The notes beneath the pieces were generated by a model. That model ran no database searches, was not told the DNA's origin, and worked only from the letters and a program-made list of their open reading frames with translations. DNA of 47,731 nucleotides, taken from the sequence record MZ501087. One strand, 5' to 3'. The stretch is from Escherichia phage JulesPiccard. The position numbers were made by a program, and so were the translations under genes. Within the stretch, counting starts at the first letter, position 1. The number at the start of each line of letters is the position of its first letter. Positions 2,178-46,894 of this stretch are shown here, piece by piece.

Positions 2178-2217
2178 CACGAATTGCCAAACACAAAAGC
2201 CACGGATGGCGTATAGT
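2175..2217 (+). promoter_or_regulatory. conserved promoter/operator element (TAGCA-N5-TGCCA ... TATAGT)
   Basis: family motif; TAG is terL stop. Confidence 0.55.
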
Positions 2218-2247
2218 CACTTCACACAAACGAGAGGAGTTAAACAA

Positions 2248-2625
2248 ATGACAAACACTTCAAAGGCTGTATATATTGGGAACAATGATGACAAGTATTG
2301 TGGATTCACTCCGGGAAATGAATACGACGTTTGCGTTCTTGATGATGGATTTTTGGGGGTTTACGATGATGATGATATTCACCGTTGCATTAAAAACGGA
2401 ACGTTACACGAGTTCAAGCTCGATTGTGAGGATGGTCATTTTGTAACTGAGACTGAGTGCGAAGTCATGCCGCCTATCGACAATAAAAAGCCAGAGCTTA
2501 GATATTACATAAATGGTCATGAGGTTGACATGGTTGAGTTCGGAAATGTGCGCTATACTGTAGAGCAGCTTAATGAGGATGGCGTAAAATGCGACACAAT
2601 CAAGTTCGAAGTAAAATTCGAGTAA
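2248..2625 (+). CDS. hypothetical protein, cargo gene (paralog of 14371..14745)
   Basis: ATG 2248 after RBS GAGAGGAG; preceded by promoter element at 2175 and followed by terminator; C-terminus IKFEVKFE matches IDFEVSFE of 14371..14745. Confidence 0.6.
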   Translation: MTNTSKAVYIGNNDDKYCGFTPGNEYDVCVLDDGFLGVYDDDDIHRCIKNGTLHEFKLDCEDGHFVTETECEVMPPIDNKKPELRYYINGHEVDMVEFGNVRYTVEQLNEDGVKCDTIKFEVKFE

Positions 2626-22339: not shown

Positions 22340-22640
22340 GTAACTCGATGTATACAATCTCATCCGCGAAAAATGATATACGCCCTGTTACGCCAATTTA
22401 CGCATTAGTTACATTAAAATATCTATATATATCAACCTTTTACTCTTATTATTATTATTATATATATTACTGTGTATATCATGTAACTACTTCTATAGAG
22501 CGTTCCGGTTATAATTTTAATATCATGTGGATTTATACAGTATTGCGCGGTAGCTATAACAATGCACCATCAGCGATAAACGGTATACACGATATACACA
22601 CTAGTTACATTGAGCTATAGCTGGGCTGAGGTGCTAAAAG
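22340..22640. repeat. AT-rich control-region repeat, copy 1 (contains (TTA)5 at 22446..22460)
   Basis: shares ATATCTATATATATCAACCTTTTA-(TTA)n-TATA core and TACATTGAGCTATAGCTGGGG tail with 39745..40060. Confidence 0.6.
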
Positions 22641-22978
22641 CCGTAACCAATGGCAATGCCTACACGCAATTACAAAGATTCACGCGTAAGTTTGAATCAA
22701 CGATTGGCAAAACCAATTGGACTGGCTACGGTGCCGAATATATAGTTAAATCATCGAAAGCAATCAACCAGAGAGATACAGAAATGACCTACTACATTAT
22801 CAAAGAGAAAAACAACGCACTTTTCGGCGATTGCTATTTTGGTGGCCCTGCTGGATACACCACAAATAAGAGCGAAGCTGACCGATTCGAGACCAAAGAA
22901 GAAGCCCGAGATGTGCTGACCGGGTACTTCACTGAAGAAGATTTGAAGTCTGTTAAAGTGGTTAAGATCAAGGGGTGA
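22610..22978 (+). CDS. hypothetical protein (start uncertain, TTG/GTG)
   Basis: 122-aa ORF heading the recombination operon; no in-frame ATG near 5' end. Confidence 0.4.
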   Translation: MSYSWAEVLKAVTNGNAYTQLQRFTRKFESTIGKTNWTGYGAEYIVKSSKAINQRDTEMTYYIIKEKNNALFGDCYFGGPAGYTTNKSEADRFETKEEARDVLTGYFTEEDLKSVKVVKIKG

Positions 22979-27337: not shown

Positions 27338-27360
27338 TAAAAAAACCTCCCGTGGGAGGT
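27338..27360 (-). terminator. minus-strand intrinsic terminator after primase gene
   Basis: plus strand AAAAAA-CCTCCC-GTG-GGAGG. Confidence 0.65.
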
Positions 27361-28283
27361 TAGTCTAATAACTCGCTTGCTTTGTATATTCGCTTTCTTA
27401 TGCCTGACTTGAAAAAATTATCATCATTTGGTAATACCACATCAAGATTGCGATCGTCAGCAACAGCAAGTAATTCAAAATTATGGCGAGTACAAGCGAT
27501 GCGTAACTTGTGGTTTCTAAGCGCGTAAGCAACCATTTCCATATTATAACTGGAGTGACAAACAAGTACGCAGCGGTTGCCAGTACCAAGATGAACGTGA
27601 ACACCATCAATCCAATTGTCGACAAGATAAGCGTACTCATCATCTTTAAGAGAGCCAATAACAGCAACTGACTGGCGAGTGTAATCTTTTGCAGCATAAC
27701 TAACATCTCCCTCTTCATTGATAAACATTACATTGCACATTTCCTCTGATATACCGTCACTATAAGCCATAAAGCACGGTATTGCGTGTATTAGTTCGCC
27801 TGATTTTGCTCTACCAACATCAAATCCAAACTCGCTATAGATTCCCTCGTATGTACTGAGTGGGGTTGATTCTACTCTTTTGGTCCTTCCCATTATCTCC
27901 AGGCATCTTTCGTGGTCAATCTGAGCGCCCATCTTGTATGGTGATGTTCTTGATGCTTGCTTGTTTGCTTTGTTAACCACCTCGACGGGGATTAGGTTTA
28001 ACCACTCACCTAGAGCATCGATACATTCGCTGAACGACTCCCCTCGCAGTTTCTGGACCCAAAGAATTCCATCACCTGAGCCGCATTGGTTGCAAATAAT
28101 ACCACCATCACCAGGCTCGCTAACTTTGTCGGTCCATCTTGCGCGATCGTTTCCGCCGCAATAAATGCATGGTTGATGCTTCTTGGTCTGGAAGAACTTT
28201 GGGTCAGCGCCGCAGATATTAATAAGTGCCTTATCCCACAGGCCGCGCATTCTTGGTAGAACCTCTTTCTTATCGTAGTGCAT
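27360..28283 (-). CDS. putative DNA primase (zinc-ribbon type)
   Basis: CIYCGG..(x25)..CNQCGSGDG zinc-binding pattern near N-terminus; replication-module context. Confidence 0.45.
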   Translation of the reverse strand: MHYDKKEVLPRMRGLWDKALINICGADPKFFQTKKHQPCIYCGGNDRARWTDKVSEPGDGGIICNQCGSGDGILWVQKLRGESFSECIDALGEWLNLIPVEVVNKANKQASRTSPYKMGAQIDHERCLEIMGRTKRVESTPLSTYEGIYSEFGFDVGRAKSGELIHAIPCFMAYSDGISEEMCNVMFINEEGDVSYAAKDYTRQSVAVIGSLKDDEYAYLVDNWIDGVHVHLGTGNRCVLVCHSSYNMEMVAYALRNHKLRIACTRHNFELLAVADDRNLDVVLPNDDNFFKSGIRKRIYKASELLD

Positions 28284-28604: not shown

Positions 28605-29090
28605 TCATCCATGAGATATGTCTTTAGCTTTTCGTGCTGCTTCGTTAGCAGCCTTAATTTTACGCCATGATCGACATTCTGGTTTGGTTGCTAACTCGGA
28701 TTCAGTAACCACACGCAGCATGTGACGCTTTTTGCAACGCAGCGTAAGAGGCTTTCCATTGCCGTCGAATTGCAGATCTGGTCGGCAGAATGTAGCGCGA
28801 AAACCTTCTCCGGTTCGTTTGTAGTAGTTGTGAGATAGCTGAGCGCCACGTGCAGAGATCATGCCACGCTTAAACCACTCTTCTACAGCCTGCGGCGTCA
28901 CCTTTAACTGCTTTGCGATATTCGCCTTTGTGCCGAAGAAATCAAGGAGCATCTCAAGCCGCGCGCGTAGCCCAGCCCTTACCTCATCTTTCAAAACGTA
29001 GTAACCTGAAGGTCGTTTCCGCTGCTTTTTATCTTCAGTGCGGATGGTTCCGTTATTGCCGTTAGTGGTTCGCTTATCAACTGCATTCAT
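28605..29090 (-). CDS. putative DNA-binding protein (HTH)
   Basis: basic 161-aa protein with HTH-like IAKQLKVTPQAVEEWFKRG; first gene of a divergent operon; palindromic operator in its upstream region. Confidence 0.45.
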   Translation of the reverse strand: MNAVDKRTTNGNNGTIRTEDKKQRKRPSGYYVLKDEVRAGLRARLEMLLDFFGTKANIAKQLKVTPQAVEEWFKRGMISARGAQLSHNYYKRTGEGFRATFCRPDLQFDGNGKPLTLRCKKRHMLRVVTESELATKPECRSWRKIKAANEAARKAKDISHG

Positions 29091-35834: not shown

Positions 35835-36166
35835 CCAAATAACTCGTCGTCCGTCATTGTTCCTATATTCATCATCTCTTTTATGTACTTGCTTTGATAC
35901 CCGTTAAGCGCCTCGAAGTTAAACTCAAATGGTCTTTTCAAGCTACCCTTGCTAACAAACTCACCACACTTACCATCAATGTATCCAGCAGTTAGCATTT
36001 TTGCACAAAATTCCTTTGATGCGGCACTGCAAAACTCTCTGTGCGACAAACCAGCCGCTTTGCTGAATCTCTCAGAGTCCTTGTGTTTGTAGATGAATCG
36101 CGCCAAATGCTGGCGCGTAAAGTAGGAATAAGATTCACAGAATCGGTACACGTCAAGGATGAACAT
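35831..36166 (-). CDS. hypothetical protein
   Basis: 111-aa ORF, RBS AGGAG; last gene of minus-strand operon. Confidence 0.45.
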   Translation of the reverse strand: MFILDVYRFCESYSYFTRQHLARFIYKHKDSERFSKAAGLSHREFCSAASKEFCAKMLTAGYIDGKCGEFVSKGSLKRPFEFNFEALNGYQSKYIKEMMNIGTMTDDELFG

Positions 36167-36258: not shown

Positions 36259-37842
36259 TCACCCCAGCAATCGTGGATTAATGTAAACTTTATCACCAAT
36301 CAGGCACGTGTAGTTTTTCTCATCAAGCATTGGCAGCAGGTGATCTTTAATCTTAGTCATCACTCCAGCCTGAGCTTCGAATGGTTTGACCTTACGAGCA
36401 GCTTCATATAGAGAACGAACGCCTACTACGCCTTTCCCGTTCCTGCCTTGTTTAATCAGAATATCAATCAGCTTATTCATCTCGGCATTGTCTCCAGCGT
36501 GACCAGCGGCGTTGGCAGATGACAGATAAGTCTTGCTAAGTTCCTGGAACATAATTACAGCCTCCTGCATTGTGTCCAACTCAATCTCCCTGGACTTCTG
36601 TGGACTCCCGCCGTTAGGGTTGAACCAGTTGCGAATAGTGTGAAGAACCGCAGCGATTCTGATAGCCTGCTTATCGAACTTGCCTAACGCACCGCGCAAC
36701 ATTGTGTGTGAATACTTCCCGCCGTCCGCGAGGTGAGGCTCCATTTCCTGACGCGCTCGGTTGAGATATTTCATTGCTGAGTTGCTCACTGTCAACTTAA
36801 CATCTTGCTCATTCATGATTTCGTGAACCAGTCGGAAGTAATCAGCCTTTAGTCCACCATCAATTGGCTCGTATGTTGATTCACCATTTTCATCAACGAA
36901 TACACGCTCGCCCAGGAATGACTTTTCACGTACAAGCAGGAAACGTTCCGACACACCAATACCACGCGCACCAGCATTCATGATCGCGTTTATTGTTTCA
37001 TCCTGCGCAATTACTGAGATGCAACCCATAGCAAAGAAACTCATGTTGTTCTCTGCATTCGCGCGAGCGATAGATACGTGCCCACCATCCCATGCTTTAA
37101 GAACAAGTTCGCTGTTCGTTTTCTTAGAGCCATCACCATAGGTCATGCCAAGCAGTGAGTTAACACTCGTTGCCTCATCCGAGATAACCGCGAAGTTACC
37201 CTGGCGGTTGTTTATTCGTGCCAGGCCTTCAGGTGTGGTGTCTGATACCGGGAATACGATATCGCACAACTTCTCCAGTTTTTCCTCTAGCTCCTCCTTT
37301 TCCTCAAATAGGGAGGCCATCTCTGAAGGAGATTTTTCCTGCTTCATCTCTTTGGATAATGCGGATAGTTTTGCCATAATCTTTTTGCGCTCACGCTTGC
37401 GAACTTCATTCAGTCGCTCGGTCTCAGCAATCATTGGAGCAATCGAAAGTGAGTTGATGGCTGATTTACCAGTTGATGGCGGCTGACTGGTCACGACGTA
37501 AAGCGAAGTCGGTTGCTGAGTTCCATGATACTCGACAGTAAAGCGGCCCAGCATCGCAGCAGAAATACACCCCAGGAAGTGCATATAGGCTGAAGACTCT
37601 GGGAACTGAACGGAGCGGGCAATGTTGGCAGAAAGTTTACCAACAACATCAATATCATTACCGAGTGAGATTACGGGGTACTTGTCATTAGCGGAATCAA
37701 TCTCTACGGGCGCCTTCCAGAACGATTGAGACTGTCGATAGCCATTGGCATTAATAGCGACTCGCAGGGGTGGGAGGTTGTCTGCGGCAGCAATTGCCAT
37801 AACCTGTTCAACAGATAGCTTATCTTCGTTGAAATCAAACAT
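36259..37842 (-). CDS. large hypothetical protein (Walker-A-like STGKS motif)
   Basis: 527 aa; QPPSTGKSA; own promoter element on minus strand at 37873..37915; N- and C-termini duplicated in 40684..41223. Confidence 0.55.
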   Translation of the reverse strand: MFDFNEDKLSVEQVMAIAAADNLPPLRVAINANGYRQSQSFWKAPVEIDSANDKYPVISLGNDIDVVGKLSANIARSVQFPESSAYMHFLGCISAAMLGRFTVEYHGTQQPTSLYVVTSQPPSTGKSAINSLSIAPMIAETERLNEVRKRERKKIMAKLSALSKEMKQEKSPSEMASLFEEKEELEEKLEKLCDIVFPVSDTTPEGLARINNRQGNFAVISDEATSVNSLLGMTYGDGSKKTNSELVLKAWDGGHVSIARANAENNMSFFAMGCISVIAQDETINAIMNAGARGIGVSERFLLVREKSFLGERVFVDENGESTYEPIDGGLKADYFRLVHEIMNEQDVKLTVSNSAMKYLNRARQEMEPHLADGGKYSHTMLRGALGKFDKQAIRIAAVLHTIRNWFNPNGGSPQKSREIELDTMQEAVIMFQELSKTYLSSANAAGHAGDNAEMNKLIDILIKQGRNGKGVVGVRSLYEAARKVKPFEAQAGVMTKIKDHLLPMLDEKNYTCLIGDKVYINPRLLG

Positions 37843-37872
37843 TACTTCTCTCCGTGTTGTTTCTGAGCGGCC

Positions 37873-37915
37873 ATTATATCAACGGCCGCCTATAATTCAT
37901 TATCAATTTGTGCTA
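37873..37915 (-). promoter_or_regulatory. conserved promoter/operator element (drives 527-aa gene)
   Basis: minus strand TAGCACAAATTGATAAT-N-TATAAT; leader CAGAAACAACACGGAGAG. Confidence 0.5.
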
Positions 37916-37916
37916 T

Positions 37917-38270
37917 TTACAGGTATTGCGCTTCAAATCTGTAGTCACCGCACACTGTAACAAAGCCAACCTCTTCGTCACGGTATAGCTGCCAGGCATT
38001 GCCTTCTCTATCGTAAACGTATCCAGCAAACTGCCCAAGACCTGCATGAATGGCAACTTGATACCTCTTCCCTTCGGTAAAGTACTTGCGAATAGATGAG
38101 CGATGGTTAACCTTTGTGCAGTAAATAGTTTTGGTCTTGATATACTTACCGCGCCCTTCAATGTTAATCCATTTGCCATCTTTCTTGATTTGCTCTACAC
38201 CATCTTTAACGCGAGCTTTGTATAATACGTTTTCGTTGCTAATCCAGTTCTTTGTCAGTGTAGTAGTCAT
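37917..38270 (-). CDS. hypothetical protein
   Basis: ORF with ATG MTTTLTKNW; ATGA overlap with upstream gene. Confidence 0.45.
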   Translation of the reverse strand: MTTTLTKNWISNENVLYKARVKDGVEQIKKDGKWINIEGRGKYIKTKTIYCTKVNHRSSIRKYFTEGKRYQVAIHAGLGQFAGYVYDREGNAWQLYRDEEVGFVTVCGDYRFEAQYL

Positions 38271-38431
38271 TTTGTTACTCTCTTCGTTGTCCACATGAAT
38301 TTGTTAGGTACTGATTTGCGCACGATTCGCACAGCAATCTTGTCAAACTTCTGAACTAAACCGTAAATCTTCCCATCAAGTGAGGAGCGGTAAACAGCCT
38401 CTTCCATTGCGTCGTAAAAGTTGTCGAACAT
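38267..38431 (-). CDS. hypothetical protein (54 aa)
   Basis: MFDNFYDAMEEAVY...; fills gap between neighbouring minus genes. Confidence 0.3.
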   Translation of the reverse strand: MFDNFYDAMEEAVYRSSLDGKIYGLVQKFDKIAVRIVRKSVPNKFMWTTKRVTK

Positions 38432-38434
38432 TTT

Positions 38435-38626
38435 CTATCTCTTTGTTGCGTAAGTAATATTGCCCGCTGGAGTTGAGCATGTGATATCAAGTGGTTTGCT
38501 GTTGTGCTTAATTGTCTTGCTCTGCTCTCTAGCTGTCAAAACTGAATCAATAATCCTTTGGATGATAACCTTATCTCGTTTGCTTGACAGCTTCCATCGT
38601 TTCGTTAAAGTTTTTATGTCTTGCAT
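38435..38626 (-). CDS. hypothetical protein
   Basis: 63-aa basic protein, RBS GGGAGATG; promoter element on minus strand upstream. Confidence 0.45.
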   Translation of the reverse strand: MQDIKTLTKRWKLSSKRDKVIIQRIIDSVLTAREQSKTIKHNSKPLDITCSTPAGNITYATKR

Positions 38627-38652
38627 TTCACATCTCCCGTTTCAATGAGATG

Positions 38653-38695
38653 AATATACATGAAAAGCCCCGAAGGGATTTAGCGATTCGTGCTA
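38653..38695 (-). promoter_or_regulatory. conserved promoter/operator element (internal to minus operon)
   Basis: minus strand TAGCACGAATCGCTAAA-(hairpin CCCTTCGGGG)-TATATT-CATCTCATTGAAACGGGAGATG. Confidence 0.5.
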
Positions 38696-38841
38696 TTGCG
38701 TGCTTTTTCTATCGCCCTTAGCATAATCTCATGACTATCAAGCAAGTCTTCTCGGAACCAATCCCCGCATGGCCAGCCCTTTCCGCTGTAGGCGCTGATG
38801 ACCTCCAGATCGAAATAATTTATCTCAGATGGTAATAGCAT
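38680..38841 (-). CDS. hypothetical protein (53 aa)
   Basis: MLLPSEINYFDLEV...; stop codon inside promoter element. Confidence 0.3.
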   Translation of the reverse strand: MLLPSEINYFDLEVISAYSGKGWPCGDWFREDLLDSHEIMLRAIEKARNSTNR

Positions 38842-38844
38842 TAC

Positions 38845-39036
38845 TCAGGCCTCCATAATGTATTCAAACTCTGATGTAAACAGTGGAAGCTCCCTTCCGG
38901 AAGGAGTCTTGATACTAACCCCGCCGGACTCATACTGTCGCATAACCTCGTAAGAACCTCCAATCTCAACTCCGTAGAATTCTCTCTCGTATTTGCCGTG
39001 TTTCGTTTGAAAGCTGATTAATTTAATTTTCATCAT
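38845..39036 (-). CDS. hypothetical protein
   Basis: 63-aa ORF in tightly packed minus operon. Confidence 0.4.
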   Translation of the reverse strand: MMKIKLISFQTKHGKYEREFYGVEIGGSYEVMRQYESGGVSIKTPSGRELPLFTSEFEYIMEA

Positions 39037-39272
39037 TTCACCTCATTAAAGGTTGCAATACCAGGGATAAACATTCCAACCTTCCAGCCCGCAATGGCAA
39101 TCCATCCAGAGTCGTGCTTGTGCGGTCGCTCAGCGCCATTAATCACCCACTCGTTCGGGATTGTCTTGCCGTTAATGATTAGCGGCTCAGCGTCGTATGC
39201 AGAGCCTTTGACGAATGGTGTTAATACCTTCTTGTCTGTACTTGTAATAACGTTAGTGCAGCGAATTTTCAT
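39033..39272 (-). CDS. hypothetical protein
   Basis: start MKIRCT after GAGGA RBS. Confidence 0.4.
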   Translation of the reverse strand: MKIRCTNVITSTDKKVLTPFVKGSAYDAEPLIINGKTIPNEWVINGAERPHKHDSGWIAIAGWKVGMFIPGIATFNEVK

Positions 39273-39282
39273 ATCCAAATCC

Positions 39283-39462
39283 TCAAATAAATGGTAGGCA
39301 TTCGTCACAGCCAAGTCCATCACAGCACAGGAATTCATCTTCTGACTGGAATTGCTTAGCCAAATCTATATCCAACTTTCCTCGCACCACAAGTTCCGTG
39401 TAATCCTCGTTAAGCCCAATCAGTGCGCATTCTTGGCGTAACTCATCTTTATCAATCTTCAT
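39283..39462 (-). CDS. hypothetical protein (Cys-rich C-terminus)
   Basis: MKIDKDEL...; first gene after minus-strand promoter element at 39490..39533. Confidence 0.4.
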   Translation of the reverse strand: MKIDKDELRQECALIGLNEDYTELVVRGKLDIDLAKQFQSEDEFLCCDGLGCDECLPFI

Positions 39463-39489
39463 ATCCACCCCCTCGTTGTTGATGAGTTG

Positions 39490-39533
39490 ACTATACCCTC
39501 GCCAGACCATAACGTCATTAACAAAAAGTGCTA
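39490..39533 (-). promoter_or_regulatory. conserved promoter/operator element (heads minus operon)
   Basis: minus strand TAGCACTTTTTGTTAAT ... TATAGT ... CAACAACGAGGGGG. Confidence 0.5.
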
Positions 39534-39544
39534 TTCGTCAGATT

Positions 39545-39660
39545 TATGGATTGTTGCAGATATTGCAATGATTCACATGATTATTGCACATATAGCAATA
39601 TTGCTTCAGATGCAATGATGTTTTTGATTGTTGCGAAAAGTGAAATGAAGGGGTGAGTGA
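39545..39660. repeat. iteron-like cluster of TTGCA/TGCAA motifs
   Basis: about 7 ATTGCA/TGCAAT units at roughly helical spacing. Confidence 0.45.
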
Positions 39661-39744
39661 GCGAATGATAGATGGATGGACTACCATACAAGTTGATTTT
39701 GATTCTTCTTGAGCAACTTTGCGCATACGCGTTATAAAGGTTAT

Positions 39745-40060
39745 GCCATGTAGATGAAATCTCACTCCGCAGGAATCGTGTACGCCTATCACGCAGGATT
39801 ACGCAATGGTTACGTAATAATATCTATATATATCAACCTTTTAGTGTTATTATTATTATTATTATTATATACGTGTATATAGTGTAGATAGTGGATATTG
39901 GATATTGCGATAGTTTTCTATGATTTTTTCCTACACTTGTAGGAATGTGACTACACTGTAGGAATAAATAGGCATATATGGGCCACCCCTCCATAAAAAC
40001 TTATCTACAATCTGTACACGGCTTTACATTGAGCTATATCTGGGGTTGGTAGCTGAAAAG
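39745..40060. repeat. AT-rich control-region repeat, copy 2 (contains (TTA)6 at 39847..39864)
   Basis: same core and tail as copy 1; lies in 620-bp divergent intergenic region. Confidence 0.6.
39930..39962. promoter_or_regulatory. two adjacent palindromic sites CCTACACTTGTAGG and CTACACTGTAGG
   Basis: direct repeat of an inverted repeat, operator-like. Confidence 0.4.
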
Positions 40061-40094
40061 CGTAAATAAATTGAATTCAACCACAAATAACGCT

Positions 40095-40122
40095 TGATAA
40101 CATGTAACCTCGATGATATTAT
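40095..40122 (+). promoter_or_regulatory. sigma70-like promoter (TTGATA-N16-TATTAT)
   Basis: near-consensus hexamers upstream of 40163 gene. Confidence 0.45.
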
Positions 40123-40162
40123 GCACCCATATTAACGAAGGCAACAATCAGGAGTAATATCT

Positions 40163-40684
40163 ATGTCGAATCGAATTCAGCCAGTAAGCCTTGGTGATGT
40201 TATCCGCTACATGGCCAAGCAGGCACTTAAGACTGACAACCGAACTTTTCATGTCCCAATCCATCTTATAGCTCGCCAGGTGTACGGACTAACGTCTGAT
40301 GATATGGGCCGAATCAGCACTGAAGATCTCGAGACTGGTGGCAAATACAGCTTGGCAAAGTTGAAAGCGTCATATGTCTCTAACACAGTTGCAAGGATGC
40401 CGGAGATTCAGGAGGCGAACGTTCGGGCCAAGCTATCAATCAAGGACGGAGACTTCGGGGATGATGTTGATGTTCGATGCGCATACATCACCTTGGTAGA
40501 TGGGGCAATTCAGAAAGGAAAGAGAGTGAAGGCCAACAACCAGGTTGCAGAGAAGGCGGTGAACGACTTTAAGGATAGAATCCTCAAGCTAATGCCATCC
40601 GTGACTGAGTTTGAAGGAGGCGAGATCACTGGAGCCATTAAGGCAATTAAGATGTACCAGGAAATGATTAAGGAGACAAAATAA
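40163..40684 (+). CDS. hypothetical protein
   Basis: RBS AGGAG; sigma70-like promoter TTGATA-N16-TATTAT upstream. Confidence 0.5.
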   Translation: MSNRIQPVSLGDVIRYMAKQALKTDNRTFHVPIHLIARQVYGLTSDDMGRISTEDLETGGKYSLAKLKASYVSNTVARMPEIQEANVRAKLSIKDGDFGDDVDVRCAYITLVDGAIQKGKRVKANNQVAEKAVNDFKDRILKLMPSVTEFEGGEITGAIKAIKMYQEMIKETK

Positions 40685-41223
40685 TGGGGATGTTTGATTT
40701 TACCGAAGAGAAGCTGACAGATGAGCAGATTATGCAGATTGCTGCGCGGGATGGACTTCCTCCGCTACGAGTTGCAATCAATGCCAATGGATATCGCCAG
40801 TCTCAATCATTCTGGTGTAGTGTTGAGGAGTTGCTCTGCGCAAAGCTCGACAGCAAGTCGGGCGTAGTTGTGCTAAAAATTCACGACCAGAGCAGGAACG
40901 GTAAAGGGGTTGTAGGAATTAGATCAACATATGAAGCGCTGAGAAAGGTCAAGCCATTTGCCGGACTCAACGGAGTCATGCATGACCTGAAAAATAACAT
41001 CCTGCCATCGCTACAGGACGTAGGAATCATCTGCCTCATTGGAGATAAAATTTACGTGCATCCATACATCATTGGCATGCATGCGATAGAAGTTGAAGAG
41101 TGGTGCGACCCATGTCCTGCTGTTGAGCAAGATACTAGACTACCATACCACTTGCGTTATAGTGAGGAAGAGGTGGAGATGGCGATGGACTTGTATCGTA
41201 GATGGAATGCTGTTGGGAAATGA
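40684..41223 (+). CDS. truncated paralog of the 527-aa protein (N- and C-terminal segments only)
   Basis: N-terminus MFDFTEEKLTDEQIMQIAARDGLPPLRVAINANGYRQSQSFW and C-terminus RNGKGVVGIRSTYEALRKVKPF..CLIGDKIYV match ends of 36259..37842. Confidence 0.55.
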   Translation: MGMFDFTEEKLTDEQIMQIAARDGLPPLRVAINANGYRQSQSFWCSVEELLCAKLDSKSGVVVLKIHDQSRNGKGVVGIRSTYEALRKVKPFAGLNGVMHDLKNNILPSLQDVGIICLIGDKIYVHPYIIGMHAIEVEEWCDPCPAVEQDTRLPYHLRYSEEEVEMAMDLYRRWNAVGK

Positions 41224-41310: not shown

Positions 41311-41520
41311 ATGAAGATGGAAAATATTCGTATTGAAGATGTTTACGTTGACCAGGCTGAGGTCAGCATCACAAAAAGAGATCGTGGTGCCGTTGTATCT
41401 CTGGATTTCGACCCTGATGAATACGGAGATTGTCAGACGCTGATGCAATACAGTCCAGACCAGGCGCGCAAGCTGGCGGCGGCATTAATTCTGGCGGCTG
41501 ATGAGGCAGAGAAGCAATGA
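41311..41520 (+). CDS. hypothetical small protein (paralog pair member)
   Basis: C-terminus ARKLAAALILAADEAEKQ resembles next gene. Confidence 0.45.
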   Translation: MKMENIRIEDVYVDQAEVSITKRDRGAVVSLDFDPDEYGDCQTLMQYSPDQARKLAAALILAADEAEKQ

Positions 41521-41631: not shown

Positions 41632-41817
41632 ATGAGCAACGGAATCATTATAAAATCTGGCGACAGGATTCTTATTGAGGCGCGCAGAAATGTCGTTGAA
41701 CTTGAAACAGAAAATGACTATGCGTTCATGACTCCAGAGCAGGCGCTTGAACTTGCAGCCGCCCTTGTATCTGCGGCGAATGAAGCCAACAACCAGCTCG
41801 GGAGCGCCCAGGCATGA
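41632..41817 (+). CDS. hypothetical small protein (paralog pair member)
   Basis: C-terminus ALELAAALVSAANEANNQ; RBS AGAGGTG. Confidence 0.45.
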   Translation: MSNGIIIKSGDRILIEARRNVVELETENDYAFMTPEQALELAAALVSAANEANNQLGSAQA

Positions 41818-43819: not shown

Positions 43820-44011
43820 ATGATTACAATTAACCTGTCAGAAGAAATGGCTGCTGACCTTATTGATTCACTAAGCCTGGTTAAAATTCGATACGGGACT
43901 TACAACAGAAGCGAATCAATAAAGGAAGTGGTAAAGCAAGTTAAACAGCAGGTCGAAGCGGCCAAAATCGAATTGCAGAACACCCCATACGATTTTAATA
44001 AAGGTGAGTAA
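43820..44011 (+). CDS. hypothetical small protein (tandem paralog 1)
   Basis: MITINLSEEMAADL. Confidence 0.45.
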   Translation: MITINLSEEMAADLIDSLSLVKIRYGTYNRSESIKEVVKQVKQQVEAAKIELQNTPYDFNKGE

Positions 44012-44012
44012 G

Positions 44013-44231
44013 ATGATTACAATTAACCTGTCAGACAAGCAAGCAGCAGAACTTAAATCCATGTTATCAATCTTTGAGAAGCCAAATGACCGAGCAATTG
44101 CAAAAGAGGTTATCTCTCAGATCAACAACCAGCAATTCGACGTCAGTGACTTCGAGTCATCACGTCAATATGAAGCGATGAGTGTCAACGCTGCATACCT
44201 GGTTAACTGGGATAAGGCGACTAAGCAATGA
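44013..44231 (+). CDS. hypothetical small protein (tandem paralog 2)
   Basis: MITINLSDKQAAEL; RBS AAGGTGAG. Confidence 0.45.
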   Translation: MITINLSDKQAAELKSMLSIFEKPNDRAIAKEVISQINNQQFDVSDFESSRQYEAMSVNAAYLVNWDKATKQ

Positions 44232-46816: not shown

Positions 46817-46894
46817 GCTCTGCTAGCTCAATTGGATAGCAGCAACGACCTTCTAAGTCGTAGGTTACTGGTTCGAATCCAGTGCGGAGCGCCA
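46817..46894 (+). tRNA. tRNA-Arg (anticodon UCU), CCA encoded
   Basis: 7-bp acceptor stem GCTCTGC/GCGGAGC (one G-U), anticodon stem ACGAC/GTCGT with loop CTTCTAA, T-arm ACTGG-TTCGAAT-CCAGT, D-loop with GG, 3' GCCA; D-stem has only 3 pairs. Confidence 0.75.

Follow-up and report, generated by a model that had tools for sequence, protein, structure and literature searches.

The window, by which we mean the whole stretch of DNA analysed (47,731 nucleotides), is from Escherichia phage JulesPiccard (Bas03, Drexlerviridae), a T1-like coliphage. The two open reading frames singled out in a preliminary description of the sequence are both present at the coordinates it gave; they code for proteins of 527 and 179 amino acids (aa), lie in inverted orientation at a distance of 2.8 kb, and flank a conserved non-coding element made up of iterons and AT-rich sequence. 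The genes and sites at this locus are as follows:

36259..37842, minus strand: replicative helicase gene, 527 aa, predicted DUF3987/MCM-like AAA+ protein with a C-terminal winged helix
37873..37917, minus strand: helicase promoter region, read from the sequence as an AATAGCACAAATTGATAAT element followed by TGaTATAAT
39740..40075, no strand assigned: conserved non-coding element between divergent operons, candidate origin or regulatory site
40094..40122, plus strand: promoter-like site for the operon of the DUF7174 gene and the short gene (TTGATA, 17 nt, TGaTATTAT; without the AATAGCA element)
40163..40684, plus strand: DUF7174 gene (PF23796, E 4.9e-51), the upstream partner of the short gene
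40684..41223, plus strand: short mosaic gene, 179 aa, bas03_0065, phrog_7327, a 100% match to the JulesPiccard protein

An Rfam scan of the whole window found one tRNA and nothing else, and GC skew across the window tracks the direction of transcription and gives no origin position.

Judged by its sequence and predicted fold, the 527-aa protein is a DUF3987/MCM-like SF6 helicase, with unwinding predicted from its family. Residues 81-430 match PF13148 (DUF3987; E 3.7e-42, 145 bits, where the cutoff is 27 bits), and the predicted fold is an MCM-type AAA+ fold. The STGKS sequence, previously called P-loop-like, is the Walker A motif of the AAA+ core (residues 123-127) and is accompanied by a Walker B motif, ISDEAT (residues 220-225); across 30 helicase homologues there is no variation at G125, K126, S221 or E223, nor in the Walker A stretch Q120-S127 (QPPSTGKS, encoded at 37462-37485). 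DUF3987 proteins have been described as replicative helicases of SF6 that carry a wHTH at the C-terminus (PMC4889955), and for one of them, the distant member AgaPH, helicase activity was shown along with binding to its primase (PMC11724360).

Comparison with the 179-aa protein divides the two products into these modules:

37690..37842, minus strand: helicase N-module, residues 1-51; three short helices, acidic; common to the short gene
36484..37689, minus strand: helicase AAA+ motor with lid, residues 52-453; does not align to the short protein and is absent from it
36262..36483, minus strand: helicase C-module, residues 454-527; basic winged helix; common to the short gene
40690..40842, plus strand: N-module of the short protein, residues 3-53; homologous to helicase 1-51
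40855..41076, plus strand: winged-helix module of the short protein, residues 58-131; homologous to helicase 454-527
41077..41220, plus strand: tail specific to the short protein, residues 132-179; no helicase counterpart

The similarity at both ends, first noticed from the sequence alone, is significant. With BLASTP, helicase residues 1-51 align to residues 3-53 of the short protein (71% identity, E 1e-21) and residues 465-527 to 69-131 (57% identity, E 3e-23); hhalign widens the second block to residues 58-131 against helicase 454-527 (probability 99.5%, 49% identity over 74 columns). Neither program aligned anything to helicase residues 52-453, which bears out the earlier statement that some 400 central residues are missing from the short copy. 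The relationship extends to DNA, where two colinear blocks on opposite strands, one of 126 nt and one of 177 nt, have identities of 76% and 69%, respectively. These sequence comparisons support the conclusion that the short gene and the helicase gene are paralogous at both ends, the entire motor (about residues 52-453) having been removed from the short gene. Two details of the preliminary description had to be corrected: the open reading frame begins MGMFDF, at an ATG (40684) that overlaps the upstream stop, and the protein does not end in CLIGDKIYV, since residue 131 is the last with homology and is followed by a tail of 48 residues (132-179).

An ancient inverted duplication followed by internal deletion had been proposed. 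The inversion and the loss of the motor stand, and synonymous sites between the short gene and the helicase gene in JulesPiccard are near saturation (dS about 1.1), but in phylogenetic terms the duplication is not very ancient. The modules of the short protein are nearer to helicases of the Braunvirinae/Rogunavirinae clade (C block 52-59%, N block 68-75% identity) than to those of the 73%-identity group (36-38% and 52%, respectively), and full-length short copies were found in about 106 phage records versus 900 with the helicase.

Structure prediction gave the same division. The helicase model contains three helices at the N-terminus (residues 11-21, 25-33 and 36-41; module pI 4.9) and a C-terminal winged helix (helix 451-468, strand 472-474, helices 475-482 and 494-508, beta hairpin 512-521; module pI 9.6, net charge +5). 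The AF2 model of the 179-aa protein (pLDDT 81, pTM 0.68) is one compact unit of N-terminal helices plus winged helix, and superposes at 1.3 A with the BFVD model of a 52%-identical orthologue. Its winged helix has the H1-S1-H2-H3-S2-wing-S3 topology and a pI of 9.7 and a net charge of +5, so that the winged helix is basic, and the N-module acidic, in both proteins; fold matches of the winged helix also include the protein binders RPA32C, kleisins and STN1. In our own reading, the A-x3-G-x-S/P-x3-V pattern and the three predicted helices make the N-module HTH-like. The N-modules of the JulesPiccard helicase and short protein match no Pfam family, HTH or otherwise, at E <= 10, and both N-modules of L028, a genome considered below, gave weak non-HTH Pfam matches only (MliC and DUF6160). 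The tail is predicted to be a disordered stretch followed by an amphipathic helix (161-178), with low pLDDT at 144-153, and varies among relatives: 140-aa forms are without it and type C has a different one. Its first 14 residues align, weakly but in register, with the beginning of the gene located downstream of the helicase; at an hhalign E of 0.1, this is a hint of derivation only.

The short protein matches phrog_7327 from residue 3 to 175 (profile positions 1-173 of 179; E 2.4e-69), a family that carries no annotation in PHROGs, and our literature search returned no description of phrog_7327 deriving from helicase ends. It has no Pfam hit at E <= 0.1, hence no PF13148 or ATPase domain, and no sequence-level relatives in PDB, Pfam, NCBIfam or PADLOC. 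Against PADLOC models, neither it nor the DUF7174 protein had a match at E <= 1; searches with DUF7174 found nothing in PDB or NCBIfam.

In the genomes examined, the short gene is invariably placed right after the DUF7174 gene, whose TAA stop overlaps the short-gene ATG by 1 nt (TAATG), with AAGGAG 8 nt upstream. The overlap is identical in all seven genomes examined, L028 among them, and the two genes, as their sequence arrangement indicates, are a translationally coupled pair. The promoter-like site of this operon is without the operator-like AATAGCA element that the helicase promoter and 15 other sites have. In the window there are 16 copies of AATAGCAnnnnTTGnTAAA, the one at the helicase promoter among them, where 0.05 would be expected. 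In the non-coding element at 39740..40075, TTACGC-type repeats recur at a spacing of about 11 bp, and there are also an AT-rich (TTA)n tract and palindromic repeats that come in pairs; the element matches no Rfam family, its position is kept in five other phages, and a second copy lies at 22340-22660, in another divergent promoter region.

The 179-aa reading frame is a real gene: it occurs in more than 100 phages, its dN/dS is about 0.2, and its ribosome-binding site and 1-nt overlap with DUF7174 are conserved. A profile search returned 304 homologues, the full-length ones being about 165-190 aa among the matches listed. The gene is under purifying selection (dN/dS 0.13-0.48 between orthologues, with dS saturated), and the corresponding values for the helicase are 0.02-0.04. 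Clustering at 50% identity yields about 10 clusters of short proteins versus one of helicases, and the two-module architecture is retained across these clusters, even where identity falls to 21-40%. Within the main clade, the winged helix of the short protein has drifted to about 50% identity and that of the helicase is about 90% conserved; such drift could mean that the original target was lost or, just as well, that packing constraints were relaxed. Of the 900 helicase-bearing records, 129 have a helicase with 90% identity or more, roughly the short-gene clade. Some close relatives are without the gene: Sd1 has a 93.5% identical helicase and a DUF7174 gene, T145P1 also lacks the short gene (the helicases of these relatives are 93-97% identical), and it is absent from T1 as from most of the 900. 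Frameshifted or truncated copies also exist (L016, L012 and the 140-aa forms). The counts (about 106 versus 129 of 900) and these relatives argue that the short gene is accessory rather than an obligatory loader.

In L028, a single deep genome pair and the only source of this signal, 8-14 lineage-specific residues are common to the short and long proteins, and the control pattern occurs at 0-2 sites. The shared residues cluster in the motifs with the strongest conservation (ANGYRQ to ANGMRY, GKGVVG to GKGFVS, CLIGDK to CMIDDR); the most conserved part of the short family is PPLRVAINANGY..W. Synonymous sites of the pair are saturated (pS 0.86), third codon positions carry no signal, and the putative iterons of L028 are without visible change where the protein motifs change. 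An old gene-conversion event could also account for the covariation. For the other divergent short proteins the contigs end before the helicase, so they supply no further pairs, and a scan with the L028 protein for more deep pairs found nothing. Within the main clade, where the helicases group tightly together in the tree, we rejected concerted evolution or recent gene conversion: identity of a short protein to its own and to other helicases is mostly within 3 points, with a maximum of 7 (C block).

The reading that we favour, tentatively and at somewhat less than even confidence, is that the short protein, lacking a motor, acts early in infection at the sites where the helicase docks on DNA or protein, as a competitor or as an adaptor. 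The helicase gene would have been duplicated and the duplicate would have lost the entire AAA+ core in frame, retaining the acidic three-helix module and the basic winged helix, a domain that in related self-loading helicases has a part in origin recognition or regulation. The DUF7174 and short proteins would be made together, through coupled translation from a promoter without the operator-like element, and the short protein would then take a DNA site, a partner protein, or both, that the helicase termini use. Since it would hold these targets and be unable to unwind, it might tune when, where and how much helicase is recruited, as an accessory modulator of replication initiation and not an essential loader. 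What the analysis shows directly is homology, domain content, fold, conservation, selection, synteny and distribution; binding to the targets of the helicase and an effect on replication are what we infer. The accessory status, purifying selection, a promoter class of its own and covariation with the helicase of its own genome are all consistent with the earlier suggestion of a regulator or decoy. We counted against the competitor or adaptor reading that main-clade short proteins show no preference for their own over other helicases, as well as the unchanged L028 iterons, the N-module without a Pfam match and the winged-helix drift.

The short protein might instead display the exposed end modules of the helicase as a decoy and so draw a host immune sensor or inhibitor, one that recognises these termini, off the working helicase, which we consider unlikely. 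The patchy, accessory distribution would suit such a role, as would a promoter without the element common to the helicase and 15 other promoters, a diversity much above that of the helicase (about 10 clusters versus one, and a dN/dS about ten times higher) and retention of the lineage-specific residues of its own helicase, as expected of a mimic. However, a good mimic would have to stay close to the surface of the helicase, whereas the winged helix stands at about 50% identity; selection at a dN/dS of 0.2 is purifying and not diversifying, there is no match to PADLOC or another family, and a literature search on defence systems sensing this helicase found none documented.

Alternatively, the module pair may have been co-opted, together with DUF7174, as a site-specific DNA-binding regulator of early-region transcription or DNA organisation, uncoupled from the helicase. 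A basic winged helix next to an HTH-like N-module points that way, and so do the repeat-rich divergent promoter region that adjoins the gene and is duplicated at a second such region, the strict coupling to DUF7174, the strong divergence from the helicase winged helix and the acquisition of its own tail. If the two were uncoupled, however, the L028 covariation with the cognate helicase would be unexpected; the motifs best conserved in the short family are precisely the ones it has in common with the helicase, and the N-module matches no HTH family. We regard this reading as improbable, too.

It is quite doubtful that the short protein and DUF7174 form a helicase-born factor for origin selection, marking the elements at about 22.4 kb and 39.8 kb and recruiting or restraining the helicase, by way of modules of the same kind as the helicase ends, as a minimal, co-evolved viral partner of ORC/Cdc6 type. 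More doubtful is an obligatory role, in which an origin-bound short protein would recruit the helicase by contacts between like modules, by analogy with ORC/Cdc6 and MCM: the helicase is MCM-like and an origin-like element adjoins, but Sd1, T145P1 (with 93-97% identical helicases) and most of the 900 phages, T1 included, do without the gene, its frameshifted and truncated copies exist, and the related SaPI Rep helicases load themselves (PMC9371898). That the gene is a non-functional rearrangement remnant, open by chance, is already disfavoured and highly improbable, since the missing family annotation, variable tail and damaged copies are outweighed by a dN/dS of 0.13-0.48 at saturated dS, an architecture kept across about 10 clusters at 21-40% identity, a conserved ribosome-binding site and translational coupling, and a confident predicted fold.

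The start of replication in T1-like phages (Drexlerviridae), which are frequent contaminants of laboratories and fermentations and candidates for phage therapy, is essentially uncharacterised. A helicase copy consisting of the ends only sets apart the two modules in which targeting information most probably resides, and so offers an experimental handle on the targets of the helicase ends, the location of the origin and the control of loading. If the L028 covariation reflects co-evolution, the shared motifs mark a surface that determines specificity. The locus also illustrates a route to a viral regulator, by duplication of an enzyme and in-frame deletion of its catalytic core; eukaryotic viruses obtain a comparable result by splicing.

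Among known systems, the 527-aa protein shares with the DUF3987 (PF13148) or SF6 helicases (AgaPH, N4 dns, SCCmec Cch) the Pfam match, Walker A and B motifs, predicted MCM-like fold and winged helix; the 179-aa protein shares the ancestry of the two end modules, without the ATPase domain or PF13148, and is not a helicase. The SaPI Rep/PriRep proteins (PDB 7OLA, 8TCH) are self-loading initiator helicases with sequence identity of only about 10%. Their C-terminal winged helix recognises the iterons of the origin, and full activity depends on it (PMC9371898); the accessible part of this source mentions no stand-alone winged-helix paralogue. The JulesPiccard element is a candidate origin only. Unlike ORC/Cdc6 and the archaeal winged-helix-only initiator-like proteins, the short protein lacks an AAA+ domain and descends from a helicase, not an initiator; there is no sequence similarity, and the likeness is confined to the lid and winged-helix domain and is generic, with matches to MarR, histone H1, RPA32C and kleisins as well. 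Viral variants that lose a motor or effector and keep binding domains include papillomavirus E8^E2, the truncated Rep and T-antigen isoforms of parvoviruses and polyomaviruses, and geminivirus RepA, all made from one gene by splicing or alternative starts. Unlike these, the short gene is a separate, inverted and diverged copy with an in-frame internal deletion. The logic may nevertheless be shared, in that a shorter protein keeps the terminal targeting modules of a replication protein and, by analogy, would modulate it.

Both open reading frames compared in the preliminary description were found where it had placed them, and we refer to them, with a third gene, as follows.

36259-37842, minus strand: helicase gene (527 aa)
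40163-40684, plus strand: DUF7174 gene
40684-41223, plus strand: short gene (179 aa)

The similarity claimed for their ends held up: BLASTP aligned helicase residues 1-51 with short protein residues 3-53 (N-module; 71% identity, E 1e-21) and helicase residues 465-527 with short protein residues 69-131 (57%, E 3e-23), and when profiles built from 40 short proteins and 30 helicases were compared, the C-terminal block grew to 74 columns, pairing short protein residues 58-131 with helicase residues 454-527 (probability 99.5%). At the DNA level, too, the two genes can still be aligned, one block of 126 nt being 76% and another of 177 nt 69% identical; the alignment begins exactly at their ATGTTTGAT, and the proteins have in common the motifs PPLRVAINANGY, KGVVGxRS..RKVKPF and CLIGDKxY. 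As had been proposed, the centre of the helicase (~52-453; motor) is without counterpart in the short protein. The earlier account of the short protein was right about the homology to the helicase ends and wrong about its start, which is actually MGMFDF; nor does the protein end at CLIGDKIYV, since it runs on into a 48-residue tail that is absent from the helicase.

At 100% identity, the short protein matches bas03_0065, a hypothetical protein of Escherichia phage JulesPiccard; this T1-like siphovirus (Drexlerviridae) belongs to the BASEL collection, and its closest sequenced relatives in this part of the genome are Braunvirinae and Rogunavirinae phages. The short protein had no match in Pfam, NCBIfam or PADLOC; it is a full-length member of phrog_7327 (function not annotated) and cross-matches the helicase PHROG in two stretches. 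The helicase matches Pfam DUF3987 (E 3.7e-42) and phrog_2373, "DNA helicase".

Structure prediction of both products yielded N-terminal helices and a winged helix in each. The AlphaFold2 model of the helicase (pLDDT 89.6, pTM 0.87; 30-sequence alignment) begins with three short helices (11-41), from which a linker leads to the alpha/beta ATPase core containing both Walker A (STGKS) and Walker B (SDEAT); the lid is helical, and residues 451-521 form a winged helix at the C-terminus. In the model of the short protein (pLDDT 81, pTM 0.68; 40 homologues) three N-terminal helices (13-43) are joined by a short linker to a canonical winged helix (57-125); beyond it come two small helices, then residues 144-153, which are disordered, and finally an amphipathic helix at the C-terminus (161-178). 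A public model, made independently for the 140-aa orthologue of phage DTL, fits onto it at 1.3 A across 134 columns, so the modelled compact arrangement of N-module and winged helix is reproducible. The winged helices of the two paralogues are both basic (pI about 9.6, net +5), their N-modules both acidic (pI 4.6-4.9). The N-module reads like a putative helix-turn-helix (A-x3-G-x-S/P-x3-V); an HTH profile search with this module gave no supporting match. The first ~14 tail residues (MHAIEVEEWCDPCP; 41077-41120) are in register with the first 14 of a YdbL-like gene (MFILDVYRFCESYS; 36125-36166, minus strand; hhalign E 0.1), which is immediately 3' of the helicase stop in several relatives and lies ~92 nt beyond it in the window. 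This hints that the duplicated segment may have run on into the YdbL-like gene with loss of the stop codon.

DUF3987 proteins are counted among the MCM-related replicative helicases of superfamily 6, bear a winged helix at the C-terminus and usually have a primase partner (PMC4889955), a picture with which the modelled architecture of the phage helicase agrees. For one member, 5'-3' DNA unwinding and binding to its own primase-polymerase have been demonstrated (PMC11724360). In SaPI Reps the C-terminal winged helix reads origin iterons flanking an AT-rich tract and is needed for full ATPase and helicase activity (PMC9371898). Elsewhere, the phage genome encodes a separate zinc-ribbon primase (27360-28283), an SNF2-like helicase, VRR-NUC, Erf and an exonuclease; no DNA polymerase was found among the scanned ORFs of the window.

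A profile search with the short protein returned 304 homologues, the full-length ones among the matches listed being ~165-190 aa long. Against 1.84 billion representative proteins there were only 51 matches, about 10 of them full-length short proteins that form clusters of their own at 50% identity; all retain N-module, junction and winged helix, and usually the tail as well, even where identity falls to 21-40%. In comparisons of orthologues the short gene has a dN/dS of 0.13-0.48 (dN 0.113 and dS 0.458 for the window and the related sequence L003), and the helicase in the same genome pairs 0.02-0.04, unchanged when the termini alone are counted. The start codon of the short gene lies 8 nt downstream of AAGGAG and overlaps the DUF7174 stop (TAATG), a one-base overlap also present in every other genome examined (L001, L002, L028, L032, L033, L034 and L035). 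The short gene is a working gene, not debris.

The helicase occurs in 900 phage records (at least 90% identical in 129), DUF7174 in 138 and the full-length short gene in ~106. As to whether related phages carry one copy or both, which the preliminary description had raised, the answer is divided: some carry both, and the helicase stands alone in others, such as Shigella phage Sd1. Carriers of the short gene include JulesPiccard, JeanPiccard, 12210I and DTL in Braunvirinae and AHP42, AHP24 and e4/1c in Rogunavirinae, which together form one of two major Drexlerviridae clades (BASEL paper). In Tls, Klebsiella phages and other members of the second clade the short protein matches helicase ends only, as it does in T145P1; the T1 helicase is 57% identical to that of the window. 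With in-clade helicases the short modules share 52-59% identity in the C block and 68-75% in the N block, more than with helicases of the 73% group (36-38% and 52%), which places the duplication on the lineage leading to the Braunvirinae/Rogunavirinae clade.

Sd1 (L023) has a 93.5%-identical helicase and DUF7174, and an unrelated 67-aa ORF (2188-2391, minus strand), directly 3' of DUF7174, replaces the short gene. This ORF starts MFDLDE, cf. MFDFNED of the short protein and helicase, which may be a trace of replacement via recombination at the gene start. Other relatives carry altered copies.

Variants of the short gene in sequences from related phages
L016, 7001-7508: frameshifted
L012, 893-1387: possibly interrupted
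L001/L007, 7001-7423: tail-less, 140 aa

Judging by these copies, loss can affect the tail alone or the entire gene; the short gene is dispensable.

In 12 genome pairs the helicases are 92-98% identical and the short proteins only 47-82%; in L028, from a deeper lineage, the values relative to the window are 82% and 39%. The short proteins fall into three subtypes differing in junctions and tails. Over the 112 shared columns mean identity is 88.9% among helicases, 60.8% among short proteins and 59.5% between the two, and short proteins showed no preference for their own helicase. In a quartet test with L028 (two genomes x two paralogues), 8-14 sites had a state shared by one genome's two paralogues and differing from the other genome, 3-8 sites supported the short-vs-long grouping, and the control pattern had 0-2. 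The genome-specific sites concentrate in the most conserved motifs (ANGYRQ/ANGMRY, GKGVVG/GKGFVS and CLIGDK/CMIDDR). Recent gene conversion is ruled out, since the L028 paralogues have reached full saturation at synonymous sites (pS 0.86) and no signal came from third codon positions in the L028 quartets. The covariation, seen in this single lineage, could reflect co-evolution on a shared target or very old conversion.

Upstream of the helicase lie AATAGCACAAATTGATAAT and a TGaTATAAT box. The window has 16 copies of the element AATAGCAnnnnTTGnTAAA (0.05 expected), a motif that includes the palindrome TAGCA-N5-TGCTA; every copy lies ~22 nt upstream of a TATAAT-like box.

Copies of AATAGCAnnnnTTGnTAAA in the window
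Minus strand: 22304, 37899, 38679, 39517
Others: 2173, 9904, 14296, 23947, 27295, 29102, 31603, 32444, 41242, 42373, 44361, 45509

Together they resemble a promoter class spread over the phage genome, with an operator built in to which a dimeric regulator would bind; the Cro-like protein encoded at 28605-29090 is a possible candidate. One copy of the helicase-upstream element is directly 3' of the short gene stop. The DUF7174-short pair lies behind TTGATA-17-TGaTATTAT without the palindromic element, so the two paralogues are probably under different transcriptional control.

Non-coding DNA of ~550 bp separates the leftward operon, of which the helicase is the last gene, from the rightward operon of DUF7174 and the short gene. 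This stretch contains a hairpin, ATTGCA-type repeats, three to four TTACGC-like repeats at a spacing of ~11 bp, a (TTA)n tract rich in AT, and ACACTTGTAGGAAT repeats, which are palindromic and paired. An element of ~300 bp within it is duplicated at 77% identity, each copy in a divergent intergenic region.

22340-22660: one copy of the duplicated element
39740-40075: the other copy

The element also carries ATATCTATATATATCAACCTTTTA, (TTA)7-8 and GTGTATA repeats, is kept at the same position in five other phages, including L028, and matched no family in Rfam. It looks like a candidate iteron-plus-unwinding-element origin, or a regulatory site.

Several small features were observed in the same genome. 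Two adjacent genes 3' of the short gene (41311-41520 and 41632-41817) have a common C-terminal helix (59% over 22 aa, E 3e-7) and are small tandem paralogues. A repeated 5' gene end encoding MITINLSE/D... (43820-43862 and 44013-44055, also 2100-2142; 79% over 43 nt) marks another small early-region paralogue pair, and this N-terminus is also found in Sd1 (L023 1866-2105). A tRNA-Arg (anticodon TCT) lies at 46817-46894, as in related Drexlerviridae.

The short gene is established as an in-frame, motor-less paralogue retaining exactly the helicase's two peripheral modules, under purifying selection, coupled to DUF7174, in a separate promoter class, accessory, and with one case of covariation with its cognate helicase. 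As the most economical mechanism we tentatively propose that the short protein binds the targets of the helicase ends: its basic winged helix would contact DNA and its acidic N-module a protein partner, and, without unwinding, it would modulate recruitment of the helicase early in infection. That it is instead a decoy for a host factor seems unlikely to us, and we would also give little weight to a regulator whose role has drifted away from the helicase. An essential loader is quite doubtful, as close relatives do without the gene. A dead remnant is very improbable in the face of its selection and conservation. Should the helicase N-module turn out to pack against the winged helix, whether in cis or across neighbouring subunits, the short protein would amount to an independent copy of one composite domain, able to cap rings or poison them.

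The family itself is already catalogued as phrog_7327, and in the literature searched we found no description of its derivation from helicase termini. Among eukaryotic viruses, replication proteins that have lost a domain and serve as modulators are a familiar phenomenon. The case described here differs from these in that a separate, inverted and conserved gene copy of an MCM-like phage helicase consists of the two ends only.
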